Shown one piece after another: positions 1,195 through 38,273 of a stretch of DNA of 64,000 nt. The position numbers were made by a program, and so were the translations under genes. The notes below the pieces were generated by a model that was given only the letters and a program-made list of their open reading frames with translations, was not told where the DNA came from and made no database searches. Positions within the stretch are counted from its first letter, which is position 1. Each line of letters begins with the position of its first letter. This DNA comes from Candidatus Bathyarchaeia archaeon (GTDB taxonomy: Archaea > Thermoproteota > Bathyarchaeia > Bathyarchaeales > Bathycorpusculaceae), in assembly GCA_049521795.1 (NCBI GenBank), contig JBEKOM010000011.1, positions 1 to 64,000 on the forward strand, in the 5' to 3' direction.

Positions 1195-1720
1195 ATGTTT
1201 GAGTAGCCTGTGAATTCCGTTTCTCACGGATTGTCAATTTCTCTTGCTAGTCTTGTCAACTTTGCATAGAACCATTGTTTTTCGAGATTTTTCATCTTTA
1301 TTCTTGGTGAGTTCGTTGAGTAGGTTTGTCTGTGTCATTTCCTAGGCGCCAACCAAATCGCGCGCGCTTCTATCTAATCCCATTTCTTTCTCATTTACGA
1401 CGCACACGGCTTCTTGTTCCTCTGCACAATCACCCCCTAAATAGGCATAGCTGAGTCAACGTTCTAACTACTCTTTTTTCACCGGCAATTCACACTTCAG
1501 ATGATGACTCTCAGATCAACGCGTTGGTCCGAAGTACGAAATCGCGCTGGAAGAACGAAAATTCTTGAAAGAGCTGTACCCTGAGGCCTATAGACGTGTA
1601 GTTGAAGCGTGGCGCTTGCGCTTCTCGCTCGAGCCAGCCAGCTAGAATTTAAGCTTCCGACATGGGTCTTCGTTGAGGAACAAAAGTTAGACCTATAGTT
1701 CTCGAATCCGCGCGCACGGT

Positions 1721-1912
1721 TCATTTGTGCCGCTGTTTCTGACTCGCTTTGCGCCACGCCTGAACCCACTCTTCGTCACATTCATCCATCATCTGTAAAT
1801 AATCCTGATCTATAGCTTCAACTGATTTTTCTCCGAGTTCTATAAGTACGCCTTGAAAAAGAGCCGTATCGAGTTCTTTTGACTGTTCTGTCGTCTTCCT
1901 AGGCTTCTTCAT
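1721..1912 (-). CDS. Small protein of unknown function, DECDEEW family, copy 1 (63 aa)
   Basis: Paralogous to 2156..2350 and 7010..7223 (FQG...DQD.LQ.MDECDEEWV.AWR), which supports real coding. Confidence 0.75.
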   Translation of the reverse strand: MKKPRKTTEQSKELDTALFQGVLIELGEKSVEAIDQDYLQMMDECDEEWVQAWRKASQKQRHK

Positions 1913-2011
1913 GGAAACAAGCTTTCGATCAGATACATATTAGATTTGTGAACTCACAATCAACATGGAGGAGCTCGCGCAGCACGAGCGGTAGTTAAAT
2001 ATCGGATTAAT

Positions 2012-2330
2012 CTATGTTAAATGAATAGCCTAGCGTTTTGTGGCACATTAATAACACAATCTATTGGTAACGTGTGTGGTTCGCTCTTGTGTTATGCTGG
2101 TATCTTGTCAACAAATCTATTATGAGCCCGCTCGACAAGATGATAATCGACCTCCGTGAAAAAGCCCAAGACGGCAGAATCAGATTCGGATGTCTTCCAA
2201 GGCGCAATCGTGAGGCTAGAAAACCCCTCGGTTGCCATGGTGGATCAAGACGAGTTGCAATTGATGGATGAGTGCGACGAAGAGTGGGTCCGGGCATGGC
2301 GGAGCGGACTCAGCAGAAGAATTGAAGAGA
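2012..2330 (+). repeat. Segmental duplication (upstream region plus peptide), partner 6865..7186
   Basis: ctatgttaaatgaatagcctagcgttttgtggcacattaataacacaatct aligns with ctatgctgaatgagacatctagtgttttgtagcatattgatgacactatct, and the similarity continues through the peptide. Confidence 0.8.
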
Positions 2331-2350
2331 AAGCGTGCGCGCTAAACTGA
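2156..2350 (+). CDS. Small protein of unknown function, DECDEEW family, copy 2 (64 aa)
   Basis: MKKPK...VFQGAIVRLE...DQDELQLMDECDEEWVRAWR; divergent from copy 1. Confidence 0.75.
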   Translation: MKKPKTAESDSDVFQGAIVRLENPSVAMVDQDELQLMDECDEEWVRAWRSGLSRRIEEKACALN

Positions 2351-2435
2351 GCCAGCTTAATCACAATCGCTCGGCGAAGCATCCTGATCATTCGATTCCC
2401 GATTCCGCGTAATTGTCTTCAGGACGAGGATTTTG

Positions 2436-4277
2436 TCACGTTGTTTTTCCAAAGTTGTTGGCAAGTGTTATTGCATCTAAAATGTTTACGATACCATCGT
2501 TGTTTAAGTCAGCATAAGGATTCCATGTGGAACTGGTCGGTGTAGACCAGAATGCTGAAGATAATAAAATAGCATCTAGGATGTTAACCACGCCGTCACC
2601 GTTTACATCTCCGGGAAGGCGCGCCATAGTGTGGCCAACCGTTATTGCAATGGTGGGTTTAAGGTCTGAGTACTGGGTTATTCCCAGAGCAGCCTTGGTG
2701 GCGTTCTCATCCACGATTTTGCCCGAGTCGGCAACGAGTCCCCATGCGGCACTTTCCAGAAAAACATCTTGAAACGCGCAACCCGCCTCAGTGTACGCCC
2801 AATCTATGTTTGAATAATCCATCCTGCTCGTATTCAGAATCGGCAACAAAATCATCGGGGCTGAAGCCATCCAGGTTTCCCCCGTCGCCTGCGCTATAGC
2901 ACCTCTTTCGTCGCCTGAAGATTCCTTCAATACAGCTTGTGTCCAAAGATCGTACAGGTATGTGCCCGTGGAGTTTAACATCCACATCGTAAACACATAA
3001 GCTCCCCCGGCGCTGGGCACCGTGCGGTGTTGAGTTGGATTGACATAGGGGCGAACGTCAACCAGGTAGGAAAGACCGTAAGCAGACCATAAGATCTGTG
3101 AAATCTCCTGAGACGTGAGCGGCGTTTCATTCCATTCGTGTGATGTTCTCGTCTCCAACAGAGCATAGTCGAGGAAAACTGAGCTTTGTTTAACCGAAGG
3201 CAATAGCTCCCAACCAGGATAAGTAGAGGACGGCAGGGCTGCGCAAGTGAAATTGTAGAAAGAGGATGGAATGGGATGTCCCAGAGGCATGTTGTACAGA
3301 ATGACTTCATCCGTCGGAAGATCAAGTACGTCATGAAAGAGAGTTGCATTTATTCCTCCTACGCATACTGTGCCAAGGCCAAGAGCGTCGGCTTCAAGGT
3401 AGATGTTCTGAACGACAGCTCCAGCTTCGAGTGCACCTAAGTTAGTGTCAGCAAACTCGTACTGACTAAGGTTGAGAGTGATGAACAGTTCAACTGGCGC
3501 AAGAAAGTAGTCGAAATAGTTCTTGTCATAGCCTCTATAATCACCGCGTCTCCACAGTTCCAGTACCTGCTGGGCCGGATCGTATCTGTAGACAGCGGTT
3601 TCGTTGCAGACATAGATGACCAGAGGATAGTTTCCAGAAACATTGGAAACAGTTCTCCCCCAAGAGGAAATACCGTACCCTGCCCACAGCACCCTTAAGA
3701 GCTGGTCCGATGAAACCTCGGGAACCGTGTAGTTCTCTGTATATGGGAAATCTCTTAGGGAAACCCTGCGCGCCATAGCAAGCTCAAGCGGCACACCCGG
3801 AATGTATGAATAACTATTCTGAAAGTCATATATTGCCACGGGGATGGATGTGGAATCGAATGTTTGATTGCCACTTATAATCGTGAATTTCTCAATTTGC
3901 CCTTGATTTCCATTCACGGCGTCAAACACTCTGAGAAACCATCTGTGCTCCTCAGACGGTGGCAAATACTGGGCTGCCCCGGAAGCGTCAACAGTTAGGT
4001 TAAGATTGCCTGTGCCAGGCTCCTCGTTCCAAACACGGATCGACCAAATGGGCTTTCCTGGGTCACCCACACCCAAGTCGACCACAAGGTCGCTAATGGA
4101 ACTGTGTTCGATGTAGATTTGGGCAACTGGCCCGGGGTCTTGTGGATTGAGCATGACTGCTGAGGGAACAGTTAGAGACACGTTGCAAAAATCAACGAGT
4201 CCATAGGACATCGTTATTGGAAGACATAACAGAAGAATCAAACTTGTACCGGTTAAAAGCCTCCTCATAAACAACAC
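2436..4277 (-). CDS. Secreted multidomain protein: P-proprotein-like domain, two SagB/ThcOx-type nitroreductase domains, C-terminal dockerin type I
   Basis: Signal peptide; IEHSSISDLVVDL...WFLRVFD...GQIEKFTI (P-domain-like); RRVSLRDF, QLLRVLWAGYG, EAGAVVQNIYLEA, RTVPSAGG (SagB-like); GDVNGDGVVNILD and ADLNNDGIVNILD (dockerin). Confidence 0.85.
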   Translation of the reverse strand: MLFMRRLLTGTSLILLLCLPITMSYGLVDFCNVSLTVPSAVMLNPQDPGPVAQIYIEHSSISDLVVDLGVGDPGKPIWSIRVWNEEPGTGNLNLTVDASGAAQYLPPSEEHRWFLRVFDAVNGNQGQIEKFTIISGNQTFDSTSIPVAIYDFQNSYSYIPGVPLELAMARRVSLRDFPYTENYTVPEVSSDQLLRVLWAGYGISSWGRTVSNVSGNYPLVIYVCNETAVYRYDPAQQVLELWRRGDYRGYDKNYFDYFLAPVELFITLNLSQYEFADTNLGALEAGAVVQNIYLEADALGLGTVCVGGINATLFHDVLDLPTDEVILYNMPLGHPIPSSFYNFTCAALPSSTYPGWELLPSVKQSSVFLDYALLETRTSHEWNETPLTSQEISQILWSAYGLSYLVDVRPYVNPTQHRTVPSAGGAYVFTMWMLNSTGTYLYDLWTQAVLKESSGDERGAIAQATGETWMASAPMILLPILNTSRMDYSNIDWAYTEAGCAFQDVFLESAAWGLVADSGKIVDENATKAALGITQYSDLKPTIAITVGHTMARLPGDVNGDGVVNILDAILLSSAFWSTPTSSTWNPYADLNNDGIVNILDAITLANNFGKTT

Positions 4278-4315
4278 CTTTGCGCGATCGCTCTTTCTTC
4301 TGTCTGTCCGTGCGT

Positions 4316-4355
4316 TAGCGCGCGCACGCGCGCGCTACATATATATGCACGCGCA
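4316..4355. repeat. (GC)n palindrome TAGCGCGCGC-AC-GCGCGCGCTA plus alternating purine/pyrimidine tract
   Basis: Read directly from the sequence; followed by catatatatgcacgcgca. Confidence 0.9.
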
Positions 4356-5049
4356 GTCTTATACTTTTCTCGCCTTCAAAAAAACTGAAGATAGAGAGAA
4401 TAAAGCGCGCTGTAGGGTTTATTTTCGCGCGCGCGATGCCAAATCAATATTTTGGAGCGACACTTACCAAAGGAATGACGCCCATGGAGTAATCGTTCGA
4501 CAACGACAGGCTACTGCGCTCAAATATATCGACGAATTATCACTTCCAAAAACCGCTCGTGTCCTCGAAATCGGATGCGGAGCAGGGTTCTTAGCAATAG
4601 CCCTTACGCAGAGAGGATTTGTTGTGGAGGCAGTGGACCATGCCCCTGCAATGATCAAGCTGACCCAAAGACACGCAGAACAGGCAAGCGTGGATGATCG
4701 GATTCGCGCATCAATTGAAGATGTTCACGAACTCAGTTTCGAAGATGAATCGTTTGACATAATCGTCGCTTTAGGAGTAGTCAGTTGGCTACATGATCTG
4801 AAGAAAGCACTGGTTGAGATTGTAAGGGTCTTAAAACCCGGCGGATACGTTGTTCTAAACACAGGGCGCGCACACGCGTTACTTAATCCTTTATCGATCC
4901 CTGCATTTGAGTCGATCTTAGAAAGATTGAATCGTAAACTTGAAAGAATCGTCACCTGTGATCCGCAGAATCTTGCTCGCGCTCACGCCTATTTGGACAA
5001 GGAATTCAATCGGTATCTCCGTAACGTGAATCGCGCGCGCGCTCGGTGA
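4345..5049 (+). pseudogene. Class I SAM methyltransferase, damaged paralog of 7323..8171
   Basis: VLEIGCGAG motif. In-frame homology to 7323..8171 runs only from about 4435 to 5031, bounded by (CG)n runs. About 70 C-terminal residues are missing. Confidence 0.7.
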
Positions 5050-6167
5050 GGAAGATGGCTTACCATGTCTCCAAGAACTCTGTCTGTGGCGTTTCGGATT
5101 CTGTCCTGCGTTGGAATATAGTGAGACTGGCTTCTCTTCTCGAAGCCCTTGAGATCCTCTCTTGAGAGATTAAGCATCTCTAGCCATAATTCGAGTTCGT
5201 GTGGTTCCCGCAAGTTTTGCTCTTCCTCCTTCAACGTCAATTCCAGGGCTTTATCTCTTGAGATCTGTTCATTTCTTACAAGCATGCTATACCATGCAGC
5301 TGCTGAGAAGCCCCATTTTCTCTGTCTGAGATAATCGTTCACGGATTCCATTGTGCAATCTATGTGATGGAACCTGTCTGCCTCTTGTTTCCAGTTGAGT
5401 TCATCCTTAAGCGTTTTGAGCATCAGATTTATGTCCCATCCAATGTAATCGAAAATAGGTAGAATGTTTATCTTTCTTGTGGGAAGAAAATGTTGCGATA
5501 TCTTTCTCAACGTGCCGTTGTGGAAATCTCCTTGCAAGTGAAGATATTCTTCTGCATCTCTAATTGACATTTCGCCACGTATGACTTCTTTGAAGTAGTA
5601 AGGGGACCAGCTGTAGATGCGATTGCCCCTAGGAAGTCGTTCGCTTATTCTGTTTGATGATCCTGAGACCACGAGAGGGATGCCAAAATCCTGCGCGATT
5701 TTGTAGCTGAAAGACCATATTCCGAGGTTGCATGGTGTGCAGAATTCTCCTGTTTTCCTGAAGAATAATGCGTAGAGTTTGCTAGCCTTCTCCCAATCTG
5801 GACCTGTTGAAACAAAATCCACGGATAGTTTCCTAGTGGCGTTCGTCAGGTTTCGTCTTGCTATTTCGGATTGGAAGCCATTGTTGAAATTGAAAGCCAA
5901 CGTTCTCAGATTGTAGAATCTACTGCAAACATAGAGAACATAGGTGCTGTCCAAACCGCCGCTTATCGGAACGAGGCAATCATACTTCTTACCCTTGTTT
6001 TTGAATGAATTAATGATTTTATTCAGTTCTTTCTTCCTTTGAATCGTGCTATGTTTGAAACCGCCCCACTCTTCATCAAAGTCATGACATACGTTGCAAG
6101 TCCCGTTTGAATCGAAACTTATCCCGGGGCAAGTTGCCGGCAGAACGCATTTTGCACATATCTTCAT
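4989..6167 (-). CDS. N-acetyl sugar amidotransferase (WbuX/WbpG-like, PP-loop)
   Basis: MKICAKCVLP...GISFDSNGTCNVC, YDCLVPISGGLDSTY; C-terminus runs through a (GC)n junction. Confidence 0.85.
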   Translation of the reverse strand: MKICAKCVLPATCPGISFDSNGTCNVCHDFDEEWGGFKHSTIQRKKELNKIINSFKNKGKKYDCLVPISGGLDSTYVLYVCSRFYNLRTLAFNFNNGFQSEIARRNLTNATRKLSVDFVSTGPDWEKASKLYALFFRKTGEFCTPCNLGIWSFSYKIAQDFGIPLVVSGSSNRISERLPRGNRIYSWSPYYFKEVIRGEMSIRDAEEYLHLQGDFHNGTLRKISQHFLPTRKINILPIFDYIGWDINLMLKTLKDELNWKQEADRFHHIDCTMESVNDYLRQRKWGFSAAAWYSMLVRNEQISRDKALELTLKEEEQNLREPHELELWLEMLNLSREDLKGFEKRSQSHYIPTQDRIRNATDRVLGDMVSHLPHRARARFTLRRYRLNSLSK

Positions 6168-6649
6168 TACTTCTCCCTCTTTTTCCCGCAGGCGATCGTT
6201 TTCCTGAGCAAAGTTCCTCGGCAGTATCCGCTAGCCAAAAAGCACACGCATGAACCTGTTTTTTCGAAACCGTTGTTTTCGAACACGTGTCGGGAGACTT
6301 TCATAAACTTGTTTTTGATGTAGATGCCGGCATAGGCCTCAGTGAAATTCTTCTCCCCTAAGCGTTTTACGGCTTCCTCGACAAGTTTTGTTCCTACGCC
6401 TTGATAACGATGCTCTGGAAAAACATACAATTTTGATATCCACCCGCTGTAGATTTTCTGTAGCAGATTATCCAGACACTGGGTAAAACTTTCCTTCCAA
6501 CTCCCACAAATAAATGAGATATCCTTGCTGCCGACGCTTACTGCTCCAAGCATTATTCCGTCGCGTTCAACAATTAGAATGTCTTCTCCATCTGATAGAA
6601 GATCAGGCTTGCTCTTGGAATAAGGAGGCATCTTCGCAAGAGATACCAT
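6167..6649 (-). CDS. GNAT family N-acetyltransferase
   Basis: ISKLYVFPEHRYQGVGTKLV acetyl-CoA binding motif; NNGF. Confidence 0.85.
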   Translation of the reverse strand: MVSLAKMPPYSKSKPDLLSDGEDILIVERDGIMLGAVSVGSKDISFICGSWKESFTQCLDNLLQKIYSGWISKLYVFPEHRYQGVGTKLVEEAVKRLGEKNFTEAYAGIYIKNKFMKVSRHVFENNGFEKTGSCVCFLASGYCRGTLLRKTIACGKKREK

Positions 6650-7009
6650 GTCTTGTTTAGTGGCAAGCCTCGTATTTGTTGAACTCGTCCATGTTGCCTG
6701 CTTTGTTCTTCATTCGTTAATTTGTCGAGCGCGCATGCGTCTATGTGAAGCTCTCATTTATTCTTTTCCGTCTGAATTGGCCAGAAATTGTTTTTATCGT
6801 TTGTTTTTCGGGATTTAAGGTCAGCTTCCTGCGGCACATTTTTGTCTGACTTGTTTGGCGCGCGCTATGCTGAATGAGACATCTAGTGTTTTGTAGCATA
6901 TTGATGACACTATCTTGTTGACGATGCGCGTGGTTTCGTTGTGTAACATGTTGATTTCTAATAAACAAACCTAATATAGCCTGCATAAGACAATGATAGT
7001 TCGACCGTT

Positions 7010-7223
7010 GTGAGAAAATCCAAGAATGCAGTAACCGATATGAATGTTTTCAAAGGCGCAATCGTGAATCTTGAACGGCCCCCTGTTGCAGTAGTGGATC
7101 AAAGATGAGTTGCAACTAATGGATGAATGCGACGAAGAGTGGGTCCGAGCATGGCGTAGCGAACTAAGCAGAAAATCGAAGACAAATAGAACACAAAGAG
7201 CGCGCGCTGTTTTGCGTATGTGA
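7010..7223 (+). pseudogene. DECDEEW family small protein, copy 3, frameshifted
   Basis: GTG 7010 gives MRKSKNAVTDMNVFKGAIVNLERPPVAVVDQ. An extra A at 7101-7103 gives TGA at 7106, and the +1 frame continues DELQLMDECDEEWVRAWRSELSR. Confidence 0.8.
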
Positions 7224-7322
7224 CGAGAGAGATAGTAAAGGAAAGACAAAAACTATTTCAGAGCGTGATGATTTATCGATATTGAGGAAGAATAACTGAG
7301 CGAGGATGGGCATAGTACAATT

Positions 7323-8171
7323 GTGGGCAAGGAAGACTACAACCATAAGCAGAAGCTCGTAGACAAGCTCTTCGATGCCAGATCAGCGTTCTGGAGAGAC
7401 ACTTACCAACAGAATGATGCCCATGGAATCATTGTTCGACAGCGGCAGGCTATTGCGCTTAAATACGTCGACGAATTGTCACTGCCAAAAACTGCCCGCG
7501 TTCTCGAGATCGGTTGCGGGGCAGGTTTTATGGCAGTAGCTCTTGCTCGCAGAGGATTTACGGTGGAGGCAGTGGACCATGCCCCCGCAATGATCGAGCT
7601 AACCCAAAAACACGCAAAACATACAGGCATGGATGATCGAATTCATGTGGCAATTGAAGACGTTCACGAACTCACTTTTGAAGATCGATCGTTTGACCTG
7701 ATCGTTGCTTTGGGAGTAATTAGCTGGCTCCACGATCTTAGAAGAGCACTAGTCGAGATTACGAGGGTCTTAAAGCATGGCGGATACGTTGTTCTAAACA
7801 GTGGGCGCGCGCATGCGTTACTTAATCCCATGTCGAACCCTGCATTTGAGTTGATTCTAGAAAGGTTGAAGAGAATTACTGCTCGTGATCAGCAGAGTAT
7901 TGCTCGGCCTCACGCTTATTTGGAACAGGAATTCAATCAATACCTCTGCGAGGCGAATCTGACGATCATAAAGAAGACAAATGTAGGGTTTGGGCCATTC
8001 AAGATCCTCAACCATAAAATATTCTCTGATCAGGTAGAAATCAAAATCCAGCAGAAATTACAACATTACGCTGATAACGGATATCCAATAATACGGTCGG
8101 CCGGAGGGCAGTACATCGTTTTGGCGAGAAAGAAGTTATCCGCACGCCTACGAAACGTATCCACTTTTTGA
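7323..8171 (+). CDS. Class I SAM-dependent methyltransferase (Methyltransf_11-like)
   Basis: VLEIGCGAG, FEDRSFDLIV, RVLKHGG motifs. Confidence 0.9.
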   Translation: MGKEDYNHKQKLVDKLFDARSAFWRDTYQQNDAHGIIVRQRQAIALKYVDELSLPKTARVLEIGCGAGFMAVALARRGFTVEAVDHAPAMIELTQKHAKHTGMDDRIHVAIEDVHELTFEDRSFDLIVALGVISWLHDLRRALVEITRVLKHGGYVVLNSGRAHALLNPMSNPAFELILERLKRITARDQQSIARPHAYLEQEFNQYLCEANLTIIKKTNVGFGPFKILNHKIFSDQVEIKIQQKLQHYADNGYPIIRSAGGQYIVLARKKLSARLRNVSTF

Positions 8172-8182
8172 TGATGAACAGA

Positions 8183-8968
8183 TTAATTTGCGAGCGCTGA
8201 ATCTTTTCTGGTCTGCACGCGCGCGCTAATTTTGAAAGGTCTCAGTCGGACTGAAGACAAGGTCATGTCTACCGTCAAGGGCACGCCATGATACTCTGCT
8301 AGAGTCATCGGCTCAACATTAGGCGTTGTGATCTTCGCGATTTCATACATCGACATTCTCTCTTCACCCCGTATATGAACGATCCCAGTAAGCCCCTGTG
8401 GAGCGCGCGCGCGCTTAACCACAGACTTTACTGCGGCCGCTACGTCAGAAGCGAAAAGGTACGTGCCGTACCTGTCGACGAACGCTCTTGGGTACGGCCA
8501 CTTTTCCTTGGCCACAAAATTGGTCCTTACAATGAGAGACTTCAATCGCGAGCATTTCACCACAAATTCCGCAAGCAACTTTGTGAGGGAGTAGTAGTTC
8601 TTGGGATACGGCAAGTCCGTTTCAACGTAGTTACCCACGTCGCCACGGAAAACGCAGGCCGTGGAAATCTGCACGAAGAAGCACTTGGCATTGTGCACTG
8701 AGCAGGCGCCCACAAGATTCTCTGTGCCCGTGACGTTCGTCTCATAGGCTTCTTTTCTGTTCTCCTCGCAGAAAGGCACGCTCGTGAGGGCTGCAGCGTG
8801 AATTACTACGTCTGGCTTTTCCTTGGCAATGTACTTGTCTACCGAGGCCTTCACCGTCAGGTCAAGTTCTTGCCTAGTCGGATGCAACGCCTCTGGGAAA
8901 ACCCTGACGAGTTCTGTTCCTAGCTTGCCTGAGCCTCCTGTTATCAGAACCTTATCCATCAGGCCCAT
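8183..8968 (-). CDS. RmlD-like NDP-4-keto-sugar reductase (extended SDR)
   Basis: ITGGSGKLG, DVVIHAAALT, YSLTK (YxxxK). Confidence 0.88.
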   Translation of the reverse strand: MGLMDKVLITGGSGKLGTELVRVFPEALHPTRQELDLTVKASVDKYIAKEKPDVVIHAAALTSVPFCEENRKEAYETNVTGTENLVGACSVHNAKCFFVQISTACVFRGDVGNYVETDLPYPKNYYSLTKLLAEFVVKCSRLKSLIVRTNFVAKEKWPYPRAFVDRYGTYLFASDVAAAVKSVVKRARAPQGLTGIVHIRGEERMSMYEIAKITTPNVEPMTLAEYHGVPLTVDMTLSSVRLRPFKISARVQTRKDSALAN

Positions 8969-9948
8969 CCTGCCTCTTTCAACAAGGCAAGTATTTCTTT
9001 TTTCTTCAGTCTGCTTGTCTTGTCGCTCGTGAACTCTTGTGCCAGGTCCTTATGGTTAAGCAGCGAGCCGGGATGGATGATGAAATATTGGCCAACCGAA
9101 GCAGTGCAATTGATCTCGTACTCGTTTATGAGACACTCATGGACTTTCTCCCCTTCCCTTAATCCAACGATTCTAAGCGGGTATGCTTCGCCAGCCATTG
9201 CCTTAGCAAGATCCAGCATGTTACAAGCTGGTAGGTTTGGAACGAATATTTCGCCACCCTTCATATGCTCAGTGGTGTACAAGACAAGTTCTATGGCCTG
9301 TTTCAGCGTGATGAGAAATCTGGTCATTTCTACGTCAGTTATCGGCAGAGGTTCCTTCTCCTGAATAAGCTTTTTGAAGAATGGAACTACAGAACCGCGA
9401 GACCCTATGACGTTACCATAACGAACAGCTGAGAATTTAGTCCTGCTTGAGATTTCATTGGCAACCCATATCTTCTCCGCTATCCCTTTTGTCATGCCAT
9501 ATAGATTGACTGGTTTCACTGCTTTATCGGTTGAAACAAATATGGCTCGCTCTATTTCATTTTTAATCGCGGCCCTCTTCACGTTCCATGTCCCCTCTAC
9601 GTTTGTTCTAACGGCTTCCAATGGAGCCTCTTCGCATGAGGAAATTATCTTTTGGGCTGCTGCGTGATAAAGCGTTTGCACATCCTTGCTTGTGTCTAAT
9701 ATCCGGTCATAATCACGAACGTCGCCAAGCACAAAGTTGAGTCTTCCATCGTGAAATTCTCGGTACATATCCAACTGTTTTTCTTCATCACGTGATAAAA
9801 CTATGATCTCTTTCGTGTCACCTTTCAGCAGTTCTTTCACGATGGCGTGACCGAATGAACCCGTACCTCCTGTAACCATTATTGTCTTTCCAGCATTAGA
9901 TTCTGTTCTCATTCTAACCGCACCCTTTAGGATTCCAATACTTCCCAT
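8959..9948 (-). CDS. UDP-GlcNAc 4,6-dehydratase (PseB/FnlA/CapD-like)
   Basis: VTGGTGSFG, SRDEEKQ, STDKAVKPVNLYGMTK, VRYGNVIGSRGSV, GLREGEKVHE. Confidence 0.92.
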   Translation of the reverse strand: MGSIGILKGAVRMRTESNAGKTIMVTGGTGSFGHAIVKELLKGDTKEIIVLSRDEEKQLDMYREFHDGRLNFVLGDVRDYDRILDTSKDVQTLYHAAAQKIISSCEEAPLEAVRTNVEGTWNVKRAAIKNEIERAIFVSTDKAVKPVNLYGMTKGIAEKIWVANEISSRTKFSAVRYGNVIGSRGSVVPFFKKLIQEKEPLPITDVEMTRFLITLKQAIELVLYTTEHMKGGEIFVPNLPACNMLDLAKAMAGEAYPLRIVGLREGEKVHECLINEYEINCTASVGQYFIIHPGSLLNHKDLAQEFTSDKTSRLKKKEILALLKEAGWA

Positions 9949-10043
9949 ATATCTTTTGGCTTTTTCCTCTACAGATCCTGCGCGTGTAGATCAGAAGTGC
10001 GCACTAATGAGTCCCTCACAAGCCGATGAGGCGTTGTATTGAT

Positions 10044-11189: not shown

Positions 11190-11312
11190 TTTCTGTCCTC
11201 TATTCCGGTCTTCCCTGCTGGTTGGGCGCGGACGATCCTATTATCCTGATGGCACTACCGCCCTGGAGGCTTCGTAGATTTCCAATCAATAGGTAGAGCG
11301 CTCGAATTTATG

Positions 11313-12929: not shown

Positions 12930-13042
12930 TTCTGCACACGTATTCGTGCAATATGTGTGCTTGTGTCGAACATGTGGACGAGAACGTTTATTAAATCGTA
13001 GTACTCATCTGGTCGCTAGGATCATAGCGGAGACAGGAAGAA

Positions 13043-14287: not shown

Positions 14288-14328
14288 GCAGGATAACTGT
14301 ACTAGGTTCAACAGCAGCACTATCGCTT

Positions 14329-15579: not shown

Positions 15580-15892
15580 TATGCTGATTCGTTTATAGAC
15601 GCCTTAAAGCTCAAAACAAGTCATGGATGCAGACTCTTAAAGCAGACGCTGCTGCGTTGGAATCATGCTCCTGCGGGCTGCCAAGTGGTGATATCATTCT
15701 GCTTGCAAGGTGTACTCCTCATTGGAATAGGTAAGGAATATTCGATTTTCCCGTGGGGAAACAAGATTCTACTAAAATCCGAAACTTCTGAAAATAGAGC
15801 GTTGCCTCGTCCTGATTGGCTTAAAATGGCTGTTATTCTTTTTTGAGCTTTGAGATTGAGTTTCCGTGCGCGCGCTAATATCAGTGTGCATG

Positions 15893-17586: not shown

Positions 17587-17599
17587 TTGCAGACCCCTC

Positions 17600-18241: not shown

Positions 18242-18273
18242 CTCTTCTAATCATAGCGCGCTAGTGACGTATG

Positions 18274-19386: not shown

Positions 19387-19395
19387 CCACCGACC

Positions 19396-21860: not shown

Positions 21861-21871
21861 ATCCGCACCAG

Positions 21872-23080
21872 TTATCGCGCGCGGGCGCTAAGTTCCAAGA
21901 GGTTTTTCAATAGTATTTGCTCCAACGTTTCCGCGAGGACGCTCACATCATATTTGTTAGCAAACTCCAGTGCCTTCAGAGACAATCGGCGCCTCATGCC
22001 TTCATCACTTAGCATAACTGAAGCAATACGAACAAACTCGTGTACATTATGATAGAAAAAAACATGTTCACTCCCGAGTGCGATTACTTCTGGCAAAGGC
22101 GTTGAGATTATAGGCTTCCCGTATGCAGAGTACACGAAGAGCTTCTCAGGGAGACGTATTATCGAACTGAAACTATCCGTCTTGTACGGCATTACGCAGC
22201 AGCAAGCTGAACCCAGATAATCAGCAAGTTGCTGATCGGAAACGTACCCAACAATTTCAACTCGTGAAGCAAGTCCAGAAGTTTCTACGAAGCTTTCTAT
22301 GTATGTTCTGAACTCTTCTTTTCGCCATGGACCAATGATCACAGTTTTGATCTCTGGAAATTTCGTACTCAATAAGCGCGTGGCCTCAAGAGGTGTTATT
22401 AGATCCAACCAATTGTCAATCACTCCCATGATTGCCATAATACTACAGGATTGATCAATATTCTTATCAGATATTTGTTCGCTTGAGAGACTTCTGTGTT
22501 TGGTGATGTCAACACCATTAGGCAAGAAGTAGCAAGATTTCTTATTGTCAATACTGCGAACATTGTTAACCAATGAGCGGCAGACGGCCAAGCATACATG
22601 AGACAATTTTATGTTCAACTTAGTTATTGCTAGAGTGACTCCTTCCACCATCTTTTTCATTATTTGCGATGAGCCTTCATAATATATTGAAGCAGATTCT
22701 GGAAAATAGTCAGAGAAATCGAACACTTTTAGAACCGAATCGCTAGAAACAAGAAAAGCGATTAAGCCACCGAGAATATTCTCATTGATCACAACATCAA
22801 TCTTAAGCTCACGAATAGCCTTGAACATTGCAGGACCTTGAAATAGAGCATTTATGGCAAAGAATATGGCTGGATCACTAACCCAGAGCGTTCTTGGTTT
22901 GATTAGATTTACCCTTTTTGCGGTTCTCTTAACTCGCTCACCTCTGTAAATGTCAAAATGCCATGCATAGACGTTGTGCCCTTTCTCGGCAAGTTTTTCA
23001 GCAATGTTATCAATATGACCATGCCCAGGTGCTCGCATCCAGTCATTCGTTGGGATCACAAGTATATTCATAAGGTCCAT
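21872..23080 (-). CDS. Glycosyltransferase family 4-like
   Basis: LPNGVD, GVIDNWLD, LPEKLFVYSAYGKP. Confidence 0.85.
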   Translation of the reverse strand: MDLMNILVIPTNDWMRAPGHGHIDNIAEKLAEKGHNVYAWHFDIYRGERVKRTAKRVNLIKPRTLWVSDPAIFFAINALFQGPAMFKAIRELKIDVVINENILGGLIAFLVSSDSVLKVFDFSDYFPESASIYYEGSSQIMKKMVEGVTLAITKLNIKLSHVCLAVCRSLVNNVRSIDNKKSCYFLPNGVDITKHRSLSSEQISDKNIDQSCSIMAIMGVIDNWLDLITPLEATRLLSTKFPEIKTVIIGPWRKEEFRTYIESFVETSGLASRVEIVGYVSDQQLADYLGSACCCVMPYKTDSFSSIIRLPEKLFVYSAYGKPIISTPLPEVIALGSEHVFFYHNVHEFVRIASVMLSDEGMRRRLSLKALEFANKYDVSVLAETLEQILLKNLLELSARAR

Positions 23081-23201: not shown

Positions 23202-24626
23202 TCAGACCCGGAATTCCGCTTTTGTTTCATCTGTCAAGGTGACTATTTCTCTTGGCAAACTCAGTAGCAATTCATTGTCAGAAGTCAATACGTTCAGCAA
23301 TTCCTCATATGTCCCCAAGTTCGTCTGGTCTGCGAGTTCGTAGTCAGGATGTACAAGAATAGTACAAAGACCATTCATTTGCTTAATAGTATTGATCATG
23401 CTTACCCATTGATGTATGGCTTCATGGGGACGCAGCTTTGATATCTTCATCAATTGGTGGTCCTGTGGCAATGAGACGGGAATTTCGAGAACACTTCCAA
23501 TAAACAGAGGGAACACGGTCGAAATCCCGTGAGGTTTCATAGTTGTCGGGTGTCTGGGCTCCCACGTTGGTATTGAAGTGTCATAAGAATAGCCAGCGAG
23601 ACCCAAAGCTTGCAAAATTGAAGAATTGTGTTCAAGAAGAGGCGCCCGAAATCCAGTGATTTTTTCCCTTACGATTATTTCCAGCATTTGCCTCGCTTCC
23701 CTCAACCTTGGAACCAATCTGTCCATGGAAATGGCACCAAGCCTCCCATCGTGCTTCGTATCATGCGCACCCACTTCTCCCCAATCTGCAAGCTCTTTGA
23801 CTATCTCCAAGTCCAGCCTATATCTTTTCGAAGGCACAAACCAAGCCGAACGTACGCCGTACTTAGATTCGATTCTCTTTAGCTGACCCGCTCTTCGCAG
23901 ACCCCTCCCAGTATCAATGTCATGGGTAAGAAGAACTGCGCACTTCTTGCCTTTCCAAGTGTTCGTGACGAGTTTCTTCTTAGACAATTTTTCTATTGCC
24001 GTCGCAAGAATGTGTCTTAAGGCGTCTAGTGACAGAACGTCGCAGAGATTTGCGACGTTTTGTTTCTCAGTCTTGCCCATTAGAAATTCCCTAGTCTTCG
24101 TTGGGGCATAGGTGTACGGGATTGGCAAGCCAGTGAGGAACCGATAAAGAGGCGTTGGTTTAACGTTCAACGTCTCAAATAGTATATTCTTGTATTCTTT
24201 CACAACATCTACGCTTAGAAATAGTAGATAGTCATCTATCTGTCTGAATATCTCTTGTGTATTATGAGGTCTTGAGCCACCTCGTCCATCAAAAGAGTAT
24301 GCCACTCGCGGATGCGCTTTCAGTTCAATTCCTGAATTAGTAAATAGTGAAATAGGTTCACCATGACACGTCGAAACCCTCAGTTTTATAGCTTCAGTCC
24401 ATCTTGCGAAACTGGAAGAATTCGAAGGCACAGCGATCGTTTTTTTTGTTTCAGAAGGCTTTTCGTTGTAGGCAATTGCAACTTCAGCTTGGTCTAAACT
24501 GGTAAAAGAACAAGCCCAAGGGGACAGAAGTTCACGTATTACTTCCGCCTCTGGGGCGCGCGCTTGAACAGCTACTTTCAAACGATCCTTTCTCCACGTG
24601 AATATTGCTGTGCTAATCCTTGGCAC
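23202..24626 (-). CDS. Polysaccharide deacetylase family protein
   Basis: LTHDID, EVGAHDTKHDG, GFRAP, YDTS, LVHPD. Confidence 0.85.
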   Translation of the reverse strand: MPRISTAIFTWRKDRLKVAVQARAPEAEVIRELLSPWACSFTSLDQAEVAIAYNEKPSETKKTIAVPSNSSSFARWTEAIKLRVSTCHGEPISLFTNSGIELKAHPRVAYSFDGRGGSRPHNTQEIFRQIDDYLLFLSVDVVKEYKNILFETLNVKPTPLYRFLTGLPIPYTYAPTKTREFLMGKTEKQNVANLCDVLSLDALRHILATAIEKLSKKKLVTNTWKGKKCAVLLTHDIDTGRGLRRAGQLKRIESKYGVRSAWFVPSKRYRLDLEIVKELADWGEVGAHDTKHDGRLGAISMDRLVPRLREARQMLEIIVREKITGFRAPLLEHNSSILQALGLAGYSYDTSIPTWEPRHPTTMKPHGISTVFPLFIGSVLEIPVSLPQDHQLMKISKLRPHEAIHQWVSMINTIKQMNGLCTILVHPDYELADQTNLGTYEELLNVLTSDNELLLSLPREIVTLTDETKAEFRV

Positions 24627-29944: not shown

Positions 29945-29953
29945 AAGTTGTCC

Positions 29954-32842: not shown

Positions 32843-33226
32843 TAGACCAGTCCCTCCCTGACAGGAGCGGAACCGAACACATTTTCAAGCATGTTCACAC
32901 ATTCGCCCGCTATCTCTTTCTCCTAAACCCTTCAAATTGAAAACCTGCTATTTAAACAATATTCTATGTAACATCTACGCAAATGTTCTAGAACAAAACC
33001 CCACATGTATAGCGCGTGCGAGAAACGGCAACAACACCAGAACAAAATCCGGCCTAGGAGCTCCAACAACCTGCTCATTAACAACCAGAACGCCCGAGTT
33101 CTCAGAAGCCAAAGGCTCCGCTTAGCGCGTTGCCTTGTCCCTTTATTGTGTGTGCGCACTTGAACAGTTCACACGGCTCCAGATCCCACCTGAACAGCCT
33201 CAGCGTTTTCAACAATGCTCGTCAAC

Positions 33227-33261
33227 TGTATATGCAAAACGTATATGCAAAATGTATATGC
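33227..33261. repeat. Tandem 13-bp repeat (YGTATATGCAAAA) x2.7
   Basis: tgtatatgcaaaa cgtatatgcaaaa tgtatatgc in the intergenic region. Confidence 0.85.
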
Positions 33262-33445
33262 TCTCACGTGCGCGCTATTGGCGAATTTAGGGACAAGCCA
33301 ACGCGCGACAGTTGAGCAAAGGCTCCTCTGCTTGGCAAAAGCCGAGGTCACAGAAGACTCAGAATGGTCGAACATGAACCGAAAACAAAATAGAACCCTT
33401 AACTATAACATGAGTTCATAGGCATAGAATACGGAGCCAAGGATC

Positions 33446-35000: not shown

Positions 35001-35249
35001 ATGAACAAAGATCTTGATACAAGCATTACAGTTCTCAGAGTAGTCGGCGAAGCCCTCTTCCTGTATGGACTGCTGGGCTGGATCTACGGAGTACTAGTGG
35101 ACATAACACATCCCGACTGGCTGCCGCTCGCTTTGTCTCATCTCACAACATGGATTAGAACAGACACGTTCGCAGTGTTGTCTTTCATCTTAAGCATCAT
35201 CGGATTCTTCGTCTGGAGACTAGCTCAAAAGATAACAAGACAGCGTTAA
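35001..35249 (+). CDS. Small two-TM membrane protein
   Basis: Two hydrophobic segments with a LSHLTTWIRTDTF loop. Confidence 0.7.
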   Translation: MNKDLDTSITVLRVVGEALFLYGLLGWIYGVLVDITHPDWLPLALSHLTTWIRTDTFAVLSFILSIIGFFVWRLAQKITRQR

Positions 35250-35494
35250 GCGCGCGCTTCCGACAGCTCGGCTTCGTTGCAACCATAGAAACAACAGACC
35301 TGCAACGTTCACTAGCGCGCGTTTTACGAGGAGGCAGACGATTTGCTAGTTTAACTTTGCAATTTTGCAAACCAGACTTTGCAGCTTTCCTAACACAATT
35401 GGCTAACCACTCGAAAACCATTCTCAAAAACTGTTAAGTGCCCATGAAATTTCCTTAGGCTTAACGGAGACAGAATCGGAGGGAAAGAATAAAC

Positions 35495-35881
35495 TTGGTG
35501 AGGAGATCTGTGTTTGATCAAATCTTCCGAGAAATGCGGGAAATACGTTACCGCCTTGACGACATTGAAAAATCCTTTTCAAACTGGAACCCTCGGCCTC
35601 TGAAGATTTCCCCTTCAGAGCTGTTCCTATTGCCAGATCACCTTAGAAAAACCTACATGACCGTCGCGTCGAAAGGCGAATGCAACTCTATACGAGTATC
35701 AGACCTCACCGGTCGCTGCCGCGCGTTAGAGAGCAGCTACCTCAACCAACTAGTTCGAATGGGCTGGCTGACAAAAAGGAGAGGCTTAAAAACAATGTAC
35801 TTCCGCGTAGTCTCCGCCGGGATATTAAAAGAAACAGCAATGGCGGAGGCAAAAAGGGCATACGGCGCGCTACTTGGATAA
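35495..35881 (+). CDS. Winged helix-turn-helix regulator, paralog of 754..1122
   Basis: VRRSVFDQIF...LPDHLRKTYMTV...TGRCRALESSYLNQL. Confidence 0.8.
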   Translation: MVRRSVFDQIFREMREIRYRLDDIEKSFSNWNPRPLKISPSELFLLPDHLRKTYMTVASKGECNSIRVSDLTGRCRALESSYLNQLVRMGWLTKRRGLKTMYFRVVSAGILKETAMAEAKRAYGALLG

Positions 35882-35928
35882 TGAAAGGATACGTATTGAA
35901 TCGGGTTTTGAGTCGAAGGTGCTAGGGT

Positions 35929-37113
35929 GTGAGGCGTAAGCGCCGGTTGGCTTTGGTTTTGGCAATCGCGGCAATATTATCCATCTCCATGGCTAGGCTG
36001 TTCTTTGATAGTCCAGCTATTTTGAGGGTGTCAGCCGTCATAACGTCAGTGCCTCTGGGAGTGTACTGGGACGCGAATTGCAGCACACCAGTGTATTCCA
36101 TCGATTGGGGCAACGTGACCGTTGGGGAGACGAAGACGATTACAATGTACGTTCGAAACGAGGGGAACGAAACATTCGTTCTGAGTGTTGAGGCAGAGAA
36201 CTGGCAAGCAGGCAACACCTCTAACGTTGCAACTTTCAGCAGCGAGGAACCAAAGATAGGACCAGGCCAGACTGTTCAGGTTAATCCGAGTCTAACGGTA
36301 TTTTCGAACGCGTCTGCGATTTCCAGTTTCAGCTTCGACATCGCTTTCGCGGAAACGTTTGTCAGGCTGGGCGATTTCGACACGTTGTTCTCCAACAACA
36401 CAAGTGCGGTGAGGATGATTTATCCTTCAGACAACACTACTAAACCGCTTAACTGCAGTGCGGCATTGGTGAGTGACTGGACAGCGTCCGCGTTCGTCTA
36501 CACAAAACTTGCAAATGTCACGGAGGGCCTCGACACTCAGGCCAGCTTTGTAGATCAAACCACAGGAAAGCCTGTGGGGGCCTCAGGAACGGGCATAGTA
36601 AGCTTTGGCGGCCCTATAGTAAACCCCGTCGTGAAGTATTCGGAGAGTAACACCAGCACTCCTTCGTCGGATAGAGCACCCATCCAATTCTATGATGCAA
36701 ACGGAGTTTTCTACTTCCAATACTCGAGCGGTTCAGCCATTTCAGGGACCAGCATGCCTGCCTCGACTGTCAATGGAAATCAAGACGTCTTTGTTATCGA
36801 GACGTTCAGTGATGGGGGCGGCAGATACATAATGCTATGCTATGGCTTTGGTTGGAAAGGAACATATGCTGCAGGCAAATACTTTGACACAGTCATATAC
36901 CCAAATCTGCAATCGCAGAGCGAAAGCTGGATCATCGTAAAGTGGAATGATACCAACGGAAACGGCTTTGTAGATGGGCCTTATGATGGAGAGACACGTA
37001 TACAATCATCGCACAGGGCAACTGAACGGCACAAGCGCGCGCTGCATGAGCTGTGCATGCTTCTGCATAGACTCAATTACTTCCTGCTTCACGTCAACAT
37101 CATTGCAACATGA
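35929..37113 (+). CDS. Secreted protein; N-terminal domain shared with 1..773, distinct C-terminal domain; probable frameshift near 36990
   Basis: Signal peptide, LGVYWDANCS, SFGGPIVN, YGFGWKGTYAAG, DTNGNGFVD. Removing one GA from gagaga gives DTYTIIAQGN-stop at 37025. Confidence 0.8.
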   Translation: MRRKRRLALVLAIAAILSISMARLFFDSPAILRVSAVITSVPLGVYWDANCSTPVYSIDWGNVTVGETKTITMYVRNEGNETFVLSVEAENWQAGNTSNVATFSSEEPKIGPGQTVQVNPSLTVFSNASAISSFSFDIAFAETFVRLGDFDTLFSNNTSAVRMIYPSDNTTKPLNCSAALVSDWTASAFVYTKLANVTEGLDTQASFVDQTTGKPVGASGTGIVSFGGPIVNPVVKYSESNTSTPSSDRAPIQFYDANGVFYFQYSSGSAISGTSMPASTVNGNQDVFVIETFSDGGGRYIMLCYGFGWKGTYAAGKYFDTVIYPNLQSQSESWIIVKWNDTNGNGFVDGPYDGETRIQSSHRATERHKRALHELCMLLHRLNYFLLHVNIIAT

Positions 37114-37317
37114 GAGCAGGATCTCCAGACCCTAGCGTCCGCGCACAACGCTCAAAATCCTGCTCACAAGCTCGGTCAGCTTCAGTCATAGCTCATGCTA
37201 TTACTGTTTTGCTTCAACTGCCCCGCCTGCAAGATGGCCTCAAGCCGACGAAACAGTTAATTCCTGCGCGACCGCGCGTATAATCAGCAATCTGCAAGAC
37301 GAATCTAGGTTTATGTT

Positions 37318-38022
37318 ATGGCTGCCGATCAAGAAAGCGTCACGCGAATACTGTCAGCGCTCTCGCACCCCACTAGAAGAGGGATCCTCCTCACTCTCAA
37401 CGAGAAGAGCGAATGCTCCTTCACCGACCTGATGAACGCTTTGAGCATCGATACCGGAAAGCTGAGTTTTCACATTCGAAATCTGACGGGGCTGATCGAG
37501 CAATCGCCGTCGGGCAAGTACCGGCTAAACAAGATGGGCGAAAACGCCGTCAGACTCGTCATGGACCTGCAATCTTGGGCCTCAGAGCTGGCCAAAAGAG
37601 CCTACGCCTTCCTCATCGACTTCGGAGTCGTTCTCGCCGTGTTCACGGCAGCTTCCTTGATAGCCACCGTGTTCTCATTAATCACGGGAGGAGGATTCCG
37701 CCCTGACATCAACGTCATCCTCTTCGTCCTCGTATTCTGGGTCTATTCCACACTGCTCGAAGGCTTCTCAGGCCAAAGCCTCGGCAAGAGACTCCTAAGA
37801 CTCACCGTTGTCCGCCTAGACGGAAAAAAAATGTTCTACGACCACGCTGCAGTCAGAAACTTCGGAAAAATCTTCGTCATACTGCCCTTCGATCTACTCG
37901 CAGGACGCCGACTGAAGGACAAGAGGTACATCAGATACTTCGACAAGTTTGCAGGAACAACAGTAATAGACCTTAACCCAGAACACTCACAAGAATCTCC
38001 AACGAGTGCCCAGACATCATAG
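37318..38022 (+). CDS. ArsR-type HTH fused to RDD domain
   Basis: ALSHPTRRGIL, GKLSFHIRNL; KRAYAFLID, GQSLGK, DKFAGTTV. Confidence 0.88.
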   Translation: MAADQESVTRILSALSHPTRRGILLTLNEKSECSFTDLMNALSIDTGKLSFHIRNLTGLIEQSPSGKYRLNKMGENAVRLVMDLQSWASELAKRAYAFLIDFGVVLAVFTAASLIATVFSLITGGGFRPDINVILFVLVFWVYSTLLEGFSGQSLGKRLLRLTVVRLDGKKMFYDHAAVRNFGKIFVILPFDLLAGRRLKDKRYIRYFDKFAGTTVIDLNPEHSQESPTSAQTS

Positions 38023-38273
38023 CATTTGGAGGGCACGTGCACACCGCCAACAGCCAGAATCCATTTCAGGACAAATCTTGCACCACTGATCGCCTACAAA
38101 GTGCGAACATTCGCGCGCGCTAGACTTGTTGTGCTCAGCTGCACATCGGCCAACAACTCTGGCGATCCTATTGTTTGTTGAGAAAAAGTGTGGATGAGTT
38201 GAAGTGTTTCTGCCCAGAGCTTATAAGCGCAGCTGTTGACTTGCTTCTGGAGCGGCCAAGCGGGGGTTGACGT

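Follow-up and report, generated by a model that had tools for sequence, protein, structure and literature searches.

Where DNA ends are joined in eukaryotes, by non-homologous end joining (NHEJ), in V(D)J recombination or by polymerase theta, filler or N/P nucleotides are found at the joints, and these are random, GC-biased or templated nearby. Archaeo-prokaryotic NHEJ joins ends with polymerase-made additions, according to those sections of the describing paper on which we draw (PMC4797286). A short sequence of another kind is the cyanobacterial palindrome HIP1 (GCGATCGC), whose enrichment and conservation extend over all three frames of genes as well as the DNA between them (PMC5861425). It is read as maintained by selection (PMC5861425) and has been tied to orphan methyltransferases (PMC5861425, PMC4390886), again as stated in the parts of these papers used here. 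Accessory-genome remodelling in archaea without insertion sequences and integrons is poorly understood. We have analysed a stretch of 64,000 nucleotides (the window) from a Candidatus Bathyarchaeia archaeon, in which an earlier note had singled out an iterated palindrome, GCGCGCGC, as the mark of rearrangement junctions and as a candidate HIP-like system of genome plasticity. Runs of alternating G and C are located exactly at breaks in homology, and in derived alleles whose ancestor matched the run over 2-4 bases at most. We lean towards the view that illegitimate joining of DNA left these runs behind as scars.

Contig C11, whose first 64 kb make up the window, belongs to a metagenome bin (G000) that consists of 69 contigs and 2,439,145 bp. 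The main comparison partner of this bin was the single-contig complete genome of a sister species (G001). The two genomes share 1472 reciprocal best hits with a median amino-acid identity of 92%, and their DNA has diverged by ~8-10%. Gene calls are those of a crude map of open reading frames (ORFs), for which ORFs of 80 aa or more were chosen greedily by length; on this map 85.6% of the genome is coding. As a run we define a maximal alternating G/C stretch; 389 runs in G000 have at least 8 bases.

Homology ends at the runs

The 150-bp flanks of each of the 389 runs were searched in G001, with 1167 random positions of the same intergenic/genic mix as controls. For the runs, both flanks were collinear in 46 cases, one flank was found in 89, the two flanks lay at different loci in 19, distal parts only were found in 51 and nothing in 184. 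The corresponding numbers for the controls are 562 (48% of the positions), 115, 16, 92 and 382. A break in homology was thus seen at 108 of the 154 informative runs, compared with 131 of the 693 informative control positions. The association with breakpoints that the earlier note had proposed therefore holds when tested against G001: the placement of the runs is non-random, with a concentration in accessory DNA and a position at the junctions of rearrangements. At the level of single bases, 71 ends of alignment blocks fall on the near edge of a run (offsets -2 to +1) and 51 on its far edge (-10 to -8) over a background of ~5 per base, where blocks from multi-copy families found by BLAST are not independent of each other. 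Fifteen intergenic runs are located 1-5 bp from a block end, while 2-3 would be expected.

Insertions and deletions (indels) gave a similar picture. The set consisted of 151 collinear indels between G000 and G001 with a length difference of at least 40 bp and a short allele. A run of at least 6 bases was present at the boundary of 55 of them, compared with 6 of 151 for windows displaced 150 bp outward. Two classes are the most frequent among the run-bearing indels: in 18 the run is in the short allele and there is none in the long one, and 18 others have one run in the long allele and none in the short one. Just 2 of the 55 run-bearing indels have a run on either side of the long allele together with a single run in the short one, as target duplication or recombination between two sites would produce. 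Where the end of a homology block meets a run, the partner sequence has no run at 61 of 78 blocks shared with G001 and at 35 of 46 blocks within the genome.

At C5:25159 and C1:556056 we found chimeric joints, in which the left part of one locus is followed by GCGCGCGC and then by the right part of another; both G001 partner loci are run-free. Elsewhere, an 8.5-kb segment is replaced by 67 bp holding two runs around a fragment of 25 bases, a 40-bp tandem duplication carries a run at its joint, and well-aligned spacers of G000 and G001 differ by clean insertions of pure runs of 6-7 bases. The extra bases at the joints are absent from both partner sequences, as is expected of end-joining fillers. 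In 10 of 51 unique junctions, 2 bases are common to the partner and the edge of the run (offset -2), which suggests seeding by microhomology.

Runs in derived alleles

The polarity of events was assigned by parsimony over seven genomes, i.e. five beyond G000 and G001, without a root. Four deletions were cleanly polarised, and in all of them it is the derived allele alone that has the run. At C1:76454, G000 reads tct-GCGCGCGC-aagc in place of ~1.1 kb found in G001 and G002, and the ancestral left end is tctGCG; at the same locus G005 and G008 have 0.7 kb of extra DNA, and in G009 the flanks are wider apart. At C2:78177 of G000, an 11-base run stands in place of ~760 bp kept by all six other genomes, and the ancestral ends are ...tttCG and GCa.... 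The two other cases are deletions in G001: one of 1645 bp with the filler aCGCGCGCtg, for which the long allele is kept in G000, G002, G004 and G009, and one of 1000 bp with the filler GCGCGCGagttggaaaatct, for which it is kept in G000, G002, G004, G005 and G009. For a third case in G001, a deletion of 1132 bp with the filler GCGCGCGtag, the polarity comes from G002 alone.

The window in detail

The first ~28 kb of the window have almost no DNA match in G001, and positions 1-14 kb have almost none in five other genomes of the genus. Positions 1-28000 represent a species-specific island with 13 of the 17 runs of the window. The first 10 kb carry genes for the biosynthesis of cell-surface glycans, encoding RmlD-like, Polysacc_synt_2 and GNAT proteins and class I methyltransferases. 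Six of the 17 runs lie within 14 bp of the end of a homology block. The features are as follows, with strands for genes and gene fragments; Logan and JGI contigs are independent assemblies discussed further below.

1359..1367: CGCGCGCGC run in a spacer; nearest homology-block end more than 155 bp away; spanned by a Logan contig of another sample
2012..2332: module copy A, 322 bp, non-coding; left end run-free; GCGCGC at 2337-2342, 4 bp past the right end
2436-4277, minus strand: nitroreductase protein with C-terminal type I dockerin, 613 aa
4318..4335: pair of runs, GCGCGCGC-a-CGCGCGCGC, in the spacer that separates the nitroreductase-dockerin gene from the methyltransferase fragment; identical in the JGI contig
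4426..4435: (CG)5 run, left joint of the methyltransferase fragment; homology to the paralogue from 4434
4434..5032, plus strand: methyltransferase fragment (class I SAM), 599-bp internal copy with 78% identity, in ORF 4345-5049
5032..5042: CGCGCGCGCGC run of 11 bases, right joint of the methyltransferase fragment; homology stops at 5032
6858..6865: GCGCGCGC run exactly at the left end of module copy B; copy A run-free there
6865..7186: module copy B, 74% identity to 2012-2332; overlying ORFs without Pfam match
7200..7207: GCGCGCGC run, 14 bp beyond the right end of copy B
7323..8171, plus strand: intact methyltransferase paralogue, 282 aa; run at 7805-7812, one substitution from the fragment copy (GCGCGCAC)
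8218..8226: CGCGCGCGC run in the RmlD-like gene 8183-8968 (minus strand), close to its 3' end
8403..8414: (GC)6 run within the RmlD-like domain, whose frame continues through it
15868..15875: GCGCGCGC run between two convergent ORFs, in a spacer of 46 bp; covered by a Logan contig from another sample
21876..21883: CGCGCGCG run where ORF 21872-23080 (minus strand) has its 3' end
24556..24563: GCGCGCGC run among the first codons of ORF 23202-24626 (minus strand)
35250..35257: GCGCGCGC run immediately behind the stop codon of ORF 35001-35249; homology to G001 up to 35222
37035..37042: GCGCGCGC run, 6 bp past the G001 block 35949-37029 (74% identity)
38112..38120: CGCGCGCGC run in a spacer; homology from 38122 (G002) and from 38209 (G001) onwards
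39923..39930: CGCGCGCG run at the right edge of the segment 39075-39938, which is missing from G001; homology resumes at 39939

The methyltransferase fragment illustrates how runs and joints coincide. Positions 4434-5032 align to 7373-7959 of the intact paralogue, and both bounding runs that the earlier note had recognised, the (CG)5 at 4426-4435 and the 11-base run at 5032-5042, are missing from that paralogue, which reads ...ctcttCGATGCC at the left joint and GAATC followed by tgacgatc at the right one and is run-free at both. The fragment has lost ~60 C-terminal codons, and its frame ends with ...NRARAR* within the right run, an ending of the ...RARAR type that had been noticed from the sequence. 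By Pfam, fragment and paralogue belong to the small-molecule methyltransferases and not to the DNA methyltransferases. The bracketing of a duplicated module by the runs at 6858 and 7200 is likewise confirmed, the module at 6865-7186 being a copy of 2012-2332. Around the run at 8218, homology to two members of the genus starts at 8225 and 8253 (~70% identity, so that the block end is imprecise). Runs had also been described as following stop codons, which is the case at 35250; the run at 37035 comes 26 codons before one, and ORF 35929-37113 continues past it with these 26 codons.

The runs recur in DNA assembled independently. Logan contigs from three other peat samples, collected in other studies, cover the region with an identity of 99-100% and contain the runs at 1359, 6858 and 15868, and a JGI metagenome contig is identical to positions 4233-4553 of the window with its four runs. 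On the evidence of these contigs the runs are not assembly artefacts, a possibility that the earlier note had raised. Contigs from four sequencing runs, placed on positions 1-20000, revealed no joints at GC runs, and contigs of other samples gave no sign of ongoing rearrangement there; as contigs drop rare variants, they are silent on activity. A scan of metagenomes gave no "empty" allele of the methyltransferase-fragment insertion, and the scan with its left flank yielded one contig, identical to the window. No known RNA family and no tRNA was detected in the window.

Peat metagenomes contain DNA of G000, and its archaeal markers comprise the RNA polymerase subunits A'/A'' and B and the large subunit of PolD. 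Most archaea carry RNA polymerase A' and A'' as two separate genes. In G000, they form one continuous ORF of 1272 aa (C2:192395-196213), with rpoA1 at residues 8-876 and rpoA2 at 906-1262.

Abundance and anatomy of the motif

In the window, GCGCGCGC has 18 overlapping matches at 15 loci. Among 100 dinucleotide-preserving shuffles of the window the mean was 0.65 and the maximum 4, so none reached 18; the earlier note had roughly expected less than one per 64 kb. All of the 14 start positions that it gave are among the matches, and the locus at 7805 had escaped it; the additional starts at 5035, 8405 and 8407 are overlaps within longer runs. Its statement that 12 of the 14 runs are followed by T is true if the whole alternating run is taken, with 4318 and 4426 as the exceptions. 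The end of the series at 38.2 kb applies to GCGCGCGC inside the window only: the CGCGCGCG run at 39923-39930 follows, and contig C11 has more runs beyond the window, at 88.6-103.2 kb.

Genome-wide, G000 has 417 copies of GCGCGCGC per strand. For both strands, 834 were observed and 71.9 expected under an order-3 Markov model (11.6x, z ~90), which makes GCGCGCGC the most over-represented octamer of this genome; the words ranked next, AGCGCGCG and TAGCGCGC, are its extensions. The strong over-representation against a Markov background that the earlier note had anticipated is thus borne out at order 3. The ratio of observed to expected drops to 1.8 at order 5 and to 1.1 at order 6, because at these orders the sub-words carry the same signal. 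The density of runs peaks on contig C13 (43.5 kb), with 46 matches or 10.6 per 10 kb compared with 1.7 genome-wide; this contig also holds members of aminotransferase and glycosyltransferase families that are paralogous to glycan-biosynthesis genes of the window.

The runs in G000 have lengths of 6 (543 runs), 7 (198), 8 (219), 9 (107), 10 (56) and 11-13 bases (7 in total), so that only 7 of 1130 exceed 10 bases. A precedes a run starting with G in 65% of cases, and T follows a run ending with C in 72%. One step further out there is a weaker preference for T and A, respectively, and beyond ±2 bases the composition is that of the background. The motif is a dispersed short palindrome, tA-GCGCGCGC-Ta, mostly of 8-10 bases, and not part of a longer repeat: with random flanks beyond ±2 bases, it cannot be regarded as a repeat element. 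Enrichment is restricted to the two GC/CG words (11.6x and 6.6x), while other (XY)4 words reach 1.0-1.8x. Within the series A(GC)nT, the ratio of observed to expected depends on n as follows.

AGCGCT (n=2): 0.79x
AGCGCGCT (n=3): 1.28x
AGCGCGCGCT (n=4): 36x
AGCGCGCGCGCT (n=5): 120x

The length of A(GC)nT is quantised and does not form a slippage series. This quantised enrichment, together with the absence of any other (XY)4 word above 1.8x, argues against plain slippage.

Location of the runs and distribution among relatives

On the ORF map of G000, 282 of the 389 runs are intergenic, 99 lie inside ORFs, where they are skewed to the ORF ends, and 8 extend across an ORF edge. The density of runs is ~17 times higher in spacers than in ORFs, a value that depends on the crude map. 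Convergent spacers have 1.15 runs per kb, tandem spacers 0.84 and divergent ones 0.59. A role as promoter or terminator was considered and rejected, since runs occur in all spacer types and at no fixed distance from starts or stops.

Although 62.8% of G000 aligns to DNA of G001, only 63 of the 389 runs are in the aligned part. The unaligned 37% hold the other 326, at a density 8.7 times that of aligned DNA. Conservation of gene neighbours follows the same line: the genes next to a run-bearing spacer are also neighbours in G001 for 14 of 207 spacers (6.8%), compared with 927 of 2213 run-free spacers (41.9%), and the contrast persists in three of four classes of spacer length. Expressed the other way round, a run is present in 14 of 941 spacers with conserved adjacency, in 15 of 126 with broken adjacency, in 77 of 638 in which one flanking gene has no orthologue and in 95 of 635 in which neither has one. 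About 20 runs are located in collinear DNA and are conserved between G000 and G001, or differ by just a substitution.

Each of the 11 genomes of the genus has between 29 and 464 copies of GCGCGCGC, the highest number being that of the single-contig sister-species genome. Eight other genera of the family have 0-14 copies, and one genome from another family has 53. Among 151 genomes sampled from the class, for which numbers of sites are raw counts and not scaled to GC content, some other lineages have hundreds of copies with the same ratio of ~2:1 of GCGCGCGC over CGCGCGCG.

Candidate elements and enzymes

We searched for an agent that could be responsible for the runs. For 2696 pairs of runs in two genomes, the inner flanks scored no higher for terminal inverted repeats than the outer flanks used as control. 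Conserved arms to which a recombinase could bind were absent, base frequencies being at background beyond ±2 of the run, and the main dispersed repeats (185-200 bp, 12-21 copies) have no runs at their ends. One repeat of ~185 bp lies at 33123-33309 of the window. It is intergenic and has no Rfam match and no flanking GC runs. G000 has ~19-21 copies of it, G001 and G002 have many, and a second family of over-represented words, GTATATGC/GCATATAC (85 observed and 25.8 expected), probably stems from this repeat. Ten multi-copy protein families near runs were read by eye, not by Pfam, and none looked like a transposase. The sole multi-copy family enriched near runs comprises proteins of ~460 aa (12 members, 7 of them near runs); judged by eye from one member, these may be surface proteins with C-terminal dockerin-like repeats.

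A C5 methyltransferase (PF00145) was found in 2 of the 11 genus genomes, namely G000 and G002. The protein in G000 (C6:17888-19891, minus strand) has 667 aa, with the C5 methyltransferase domain at residues 64-391 and a C-terminal part of ~275 aa that is not assigned to a family. The ORF that follows overlaps it, has 224 aa or more and is without family match. This protein has no match in G001 or in eight other genomes of the genus, and the locus may be a mobile restriction-modification unit. Of two conserved methyltransferase genes of family PF01555, the one other than G000 C4:26000-27037 was compared with run counts in the 151 genomes and is uncorrelated with them: it is present in run-free lineages and missing from run-rich ones. 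A link of the runs to a methylase, as suggested in the earlier note, is not supported by the genes compared.

No RVT_1 reverse transcriptase was detected in 31 relatives, and neither a PolX palm domain nor a Prim-Pol protein (PF09250) in the 11 genus genomes. In the genus, cas1 occurs as short fragments or stop-interrupted frames, bar one full-length match each in G002 and G004, and full-length cas1 is present in 10 outgroup genomes. Since Cas1 of the genus is mostly fragmentary, a casposase-like integrase is unlikely. One cas1 fragment of G000 (C10:61693-61890) starts flush after a (GC)5 run; a second one is located at C2:288413-288541.

Outside the window, G000 encodes a complete NHEJ operon of the bacterial type (C5:41155-44209), for which all four TIGR scores exceed the cut-offs.

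LigD-type primase-polymerase, 288 aa: TIGR02778 (267 bits), PF21686
Ku, 281 aa: TIGR02772 (251 bits), PF02735
ATP-dependent ligase fused to 3'-phosphoesterase, 464 aa: TIGR02779 (267 bits), TIGR02777 (191 bits), PF01068

A search of the 31 relatives gave a Ku match in 8 of the 11 genus genomes, the three without one being 65-89% complete, and in 1 of the 20 remaining genomes. The number of sites per Mb, calculated with rounded genome sizes, is 64-202 in genus members whose polymerase and Ku are intact and 26-60 in those in which these genes are broken or were not found (G003, G005, G006 and G007); this trend is confounded by kinship and incompleteness and is not apparent in the raw class-wide counts. 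Ku is present in 24 of the 151 class genomes, which is more than we had expected.

Origin of the runs

According to our proposal, the joining of two DNA ends in this genus would often add a short filler of alternating G and C. The ends could arise from deletion, capture of a stray fragment, duplication or translocation. A self-complementary (GC)n tail or linker would pair any two ends in either orientation, after which fill-in and sealing would complete the joint. Pairing in either orientation fits the inversions, the captured fragments flanked by runs and the 2-base GC/CG microhomology at ancestral ends. Scars would persist where they are tolerated, i.e. in spacers and accessory DNA, and would be inherited, decay by point substitution and be re-usable as points of breakage and joining. 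The end-joining operon of the genus could do the joining, though the operon alone would not explain the GC filler. The tailing-and-annealing chemistry and its agent are what we infer from sequence comparison. The earlier note had suggested a repair-linked process that "creates or exploits" the runs, which is close to our reading; the polarised cases favour "creates". That the runs are scars of this kind is an interpretation we prefer, though with reserve. We put forward much more tentatively, and regard as rather doubtful, the wider proposition that a single pathway marks every joint with a self-complementary (GC)4-5 linker and stitches any ends without homology or recombinase, possibly in other patchy lineages of the class as well.

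Several observations weigh against the runs being joining scars. Clean polarisation was achieved for just four events, by parsimony over seven unrooted genomes. C4:52758 and C2:102191 are unpolarisable, their flanks being on different contigs or inverted in other genomes; C8:13546 takes its polarity from G002 alone, and C4:74996 involves only a 6-base run. At 8-10% DNA divergence between G000 and G001, a run may also predate the rearrangement on the same branch. The partner has a run too at 17 of the 78 G001 blocks and 11 of the 46 self blocks, and the far-edge peak represents shared runs with divergence beyond them, which fits the re-use of pre-existing sites. With respect to enzymes (numbers of sites again being raw counts), 18 of the 23 other Ku-positive class genomes have at most 25 copies of GCGCGCGC; G107 (601 copies), G115 (373) and G113 (325) are rich in runs without a Ku match; and G016 and three other genera of the same family carry Ku with at most 7 sites. 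Ku/LigD joining would therefore not be sufficient and may not be necessary, and the filler is not tied to any enzyme among those searched.

The main rival, which we consider unlikely, is that the runs came first and were then exploited, which is the hot-spot side of the proposal in the earlier note, with (GC)4-5 being fragile as Z-DNA or cruciform or serving as the target of a sequence-specific nuclease or recombinase. The runs shared with the partner and the peak of 51 far-edge ends speak for it, as do the joints at C1:74987, C4:121311 and C9:3411, where both G001 partner loci have a run, 16 indels with a run in both alleles beside the event, a 300-bp module bounded by runs that is inverted between G000 and G001, and two G001 segments of 1.2-1.75 kb with runs on both flanks, in place of which just one run stands in G000 (C8:51846 and C1:208565). 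This rival leaves the origin of 389 runs unexplained, where ~36 per strand would be expected, and it does not account for partners that are run-free in the polarised deletions and at the majority of block ends (61/78 and 35/46), for the rarity of indels that combine two runs in the long allele with a single one in the short allele, or for the lack of the conserved arms that a recombinase site would need. Fragility by Z-DNA or hairpins alone, as mentioned in the earlier note, likewise leaves runs unexplained that are present only in derived alleles. Scar formation and attraction of breaks to existing runs may both operate. Even less probable in our opinion is that a mobile element or integrase has escaped recognition and left the runs as footprints or target duplications, e.g. 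a TA-targeting transposon with GCGC termini upon its excision, or an integrase by which arbitrary DNA enters GCGCGCGC with duplication of the site. The palindromic consensus, with a conservation that fades outward (tA...Ta), does resemble a footprint, fragments are bounded by runs on both sides, small clean run insertions exist in aligned spacers, and the distribution in the class is as patchy as expected of a mobile agent. Yet the 2696 pairs are without terminal inverted repeats, the 185-200-bp repeats are not flanked by runs, no large family near runs appeared transposase-like when its sequences were read by eye, the pattern of target duplication is confined to 2 of 55 indels, and single-run deletions with a run-free ancestor do not fit insertion.

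We regard it as very unlikely that the runs are a HIP1-like motif, kept by selection or by biased repair tied to a methyltransferase and unrelated to rearrangement. Such a motif would agree with a GC-rich octameric palindrome that is the top over-represented word and restricted to a clade, and with the ~20 collinear runs that are conserved or one substitution apart in G000 and G001. It is at odds with the ~17-fold higher density in spacers, the 8.7-fold higher density in unaligned DNA and the 6.8% as opposed to 41.9% conserved adjacency; the coincidence with junctions would be left unexplained, the C5 methyltransferase is limited to 2 of 11 genus genomes, and the PF01555 enzyme is uncorrelated with run counts. 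The chance that GC-rich palindromes simply provoked an assembly or sequencing artefact is close to negligible: G000 is a bin of 69 contigs and the window lies at the start of one, but the same runs are present in Logan contigs from three samples and in the JGI contig, 464 copies exist in the single-contig sister genome, and a word of 8 bases is too short to mislead an assembler.

Significance and relation to known systems

If the runs are scars of joining, past deletions, captures and translocations would be marked in the sequence, and the rates and targets of illegitimate recombination could be read from the genomes of uncultured peat archaea. On the wider and more doubtful proposition of a pathway that marks every joint, stray gene fragments and foreign DNA could be stitched into the chromosome, so that genes would be gained, lost and shuffled by a sequence-tagged route whose history can be read from the genome. 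Scars of joining would also imply a new end-processing activity that makes or ligates alternating GC, which would be of biochemical interest and possibly of use as a tool. A hyper-abundant palindrome then need not be a selected signal of the HIP1 type, which matters for k-mer binning, the detection of horizontal transfer and the inference of restriction sites. Our literature searches on iterated palindromes in archaea, over-representation of GCGCGCGC and filler DNA in archaeal end joining gave no description of the phenomenon, the papers on iterated palindromes being cyanobacterial or methodological and the others unrelated, and we know of no report of alternating-GC addition by archaeo-prokaryotic NHEJ.

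HIP1 and GCGCGCGC are alike as GC-rich octameric palindromes that are hyper-abundant relative to Markov expectations and clade-restricted. Unlike HIP1, GCGCGCGC is mainly intergenic, in non-conserved DNA and at homology breaks, and tracks no methyltransferase; with ~17-fold denser sites in spacers and poor conservation, the label "HIP-like" given by the earlier note does not suit it. As with the footprints and target duplications of transposons, there are short palindromic insertions in spacers and fragments flanked by the same word, whereas no inverted repeats or element were found and the duplication pattern is rare. Integron cassette arrays share with the present system that homology of gene-sized modules ends at a short core and that modules are gained, lost and reordered; in contrast to attC sites, the runs have no structure of 60-120 bp and no conserved arms, and the run is often missing from the source copy.

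With Ku, LigD polymerase, ligase and phosphoesterase in a single operon, the genus has the full set of activities of archaeo-prokaryotic NHEJ as in Methanocella paludicola, so far as the latter is described in the part of the paper used here (PMC4797286). The genus differs from carriers of NHEJ at large, most Ku-positive genomes of the class having few runs. Like end-joining fillers, the runs consist of bases from neither partner at the joints of deletions, insertions and captures, with short microhomologies at their edges. On the other hand, and unlike known fillers, the GC run is one defined self-complementary word of quantised length, and it is the top octamer of the genome.

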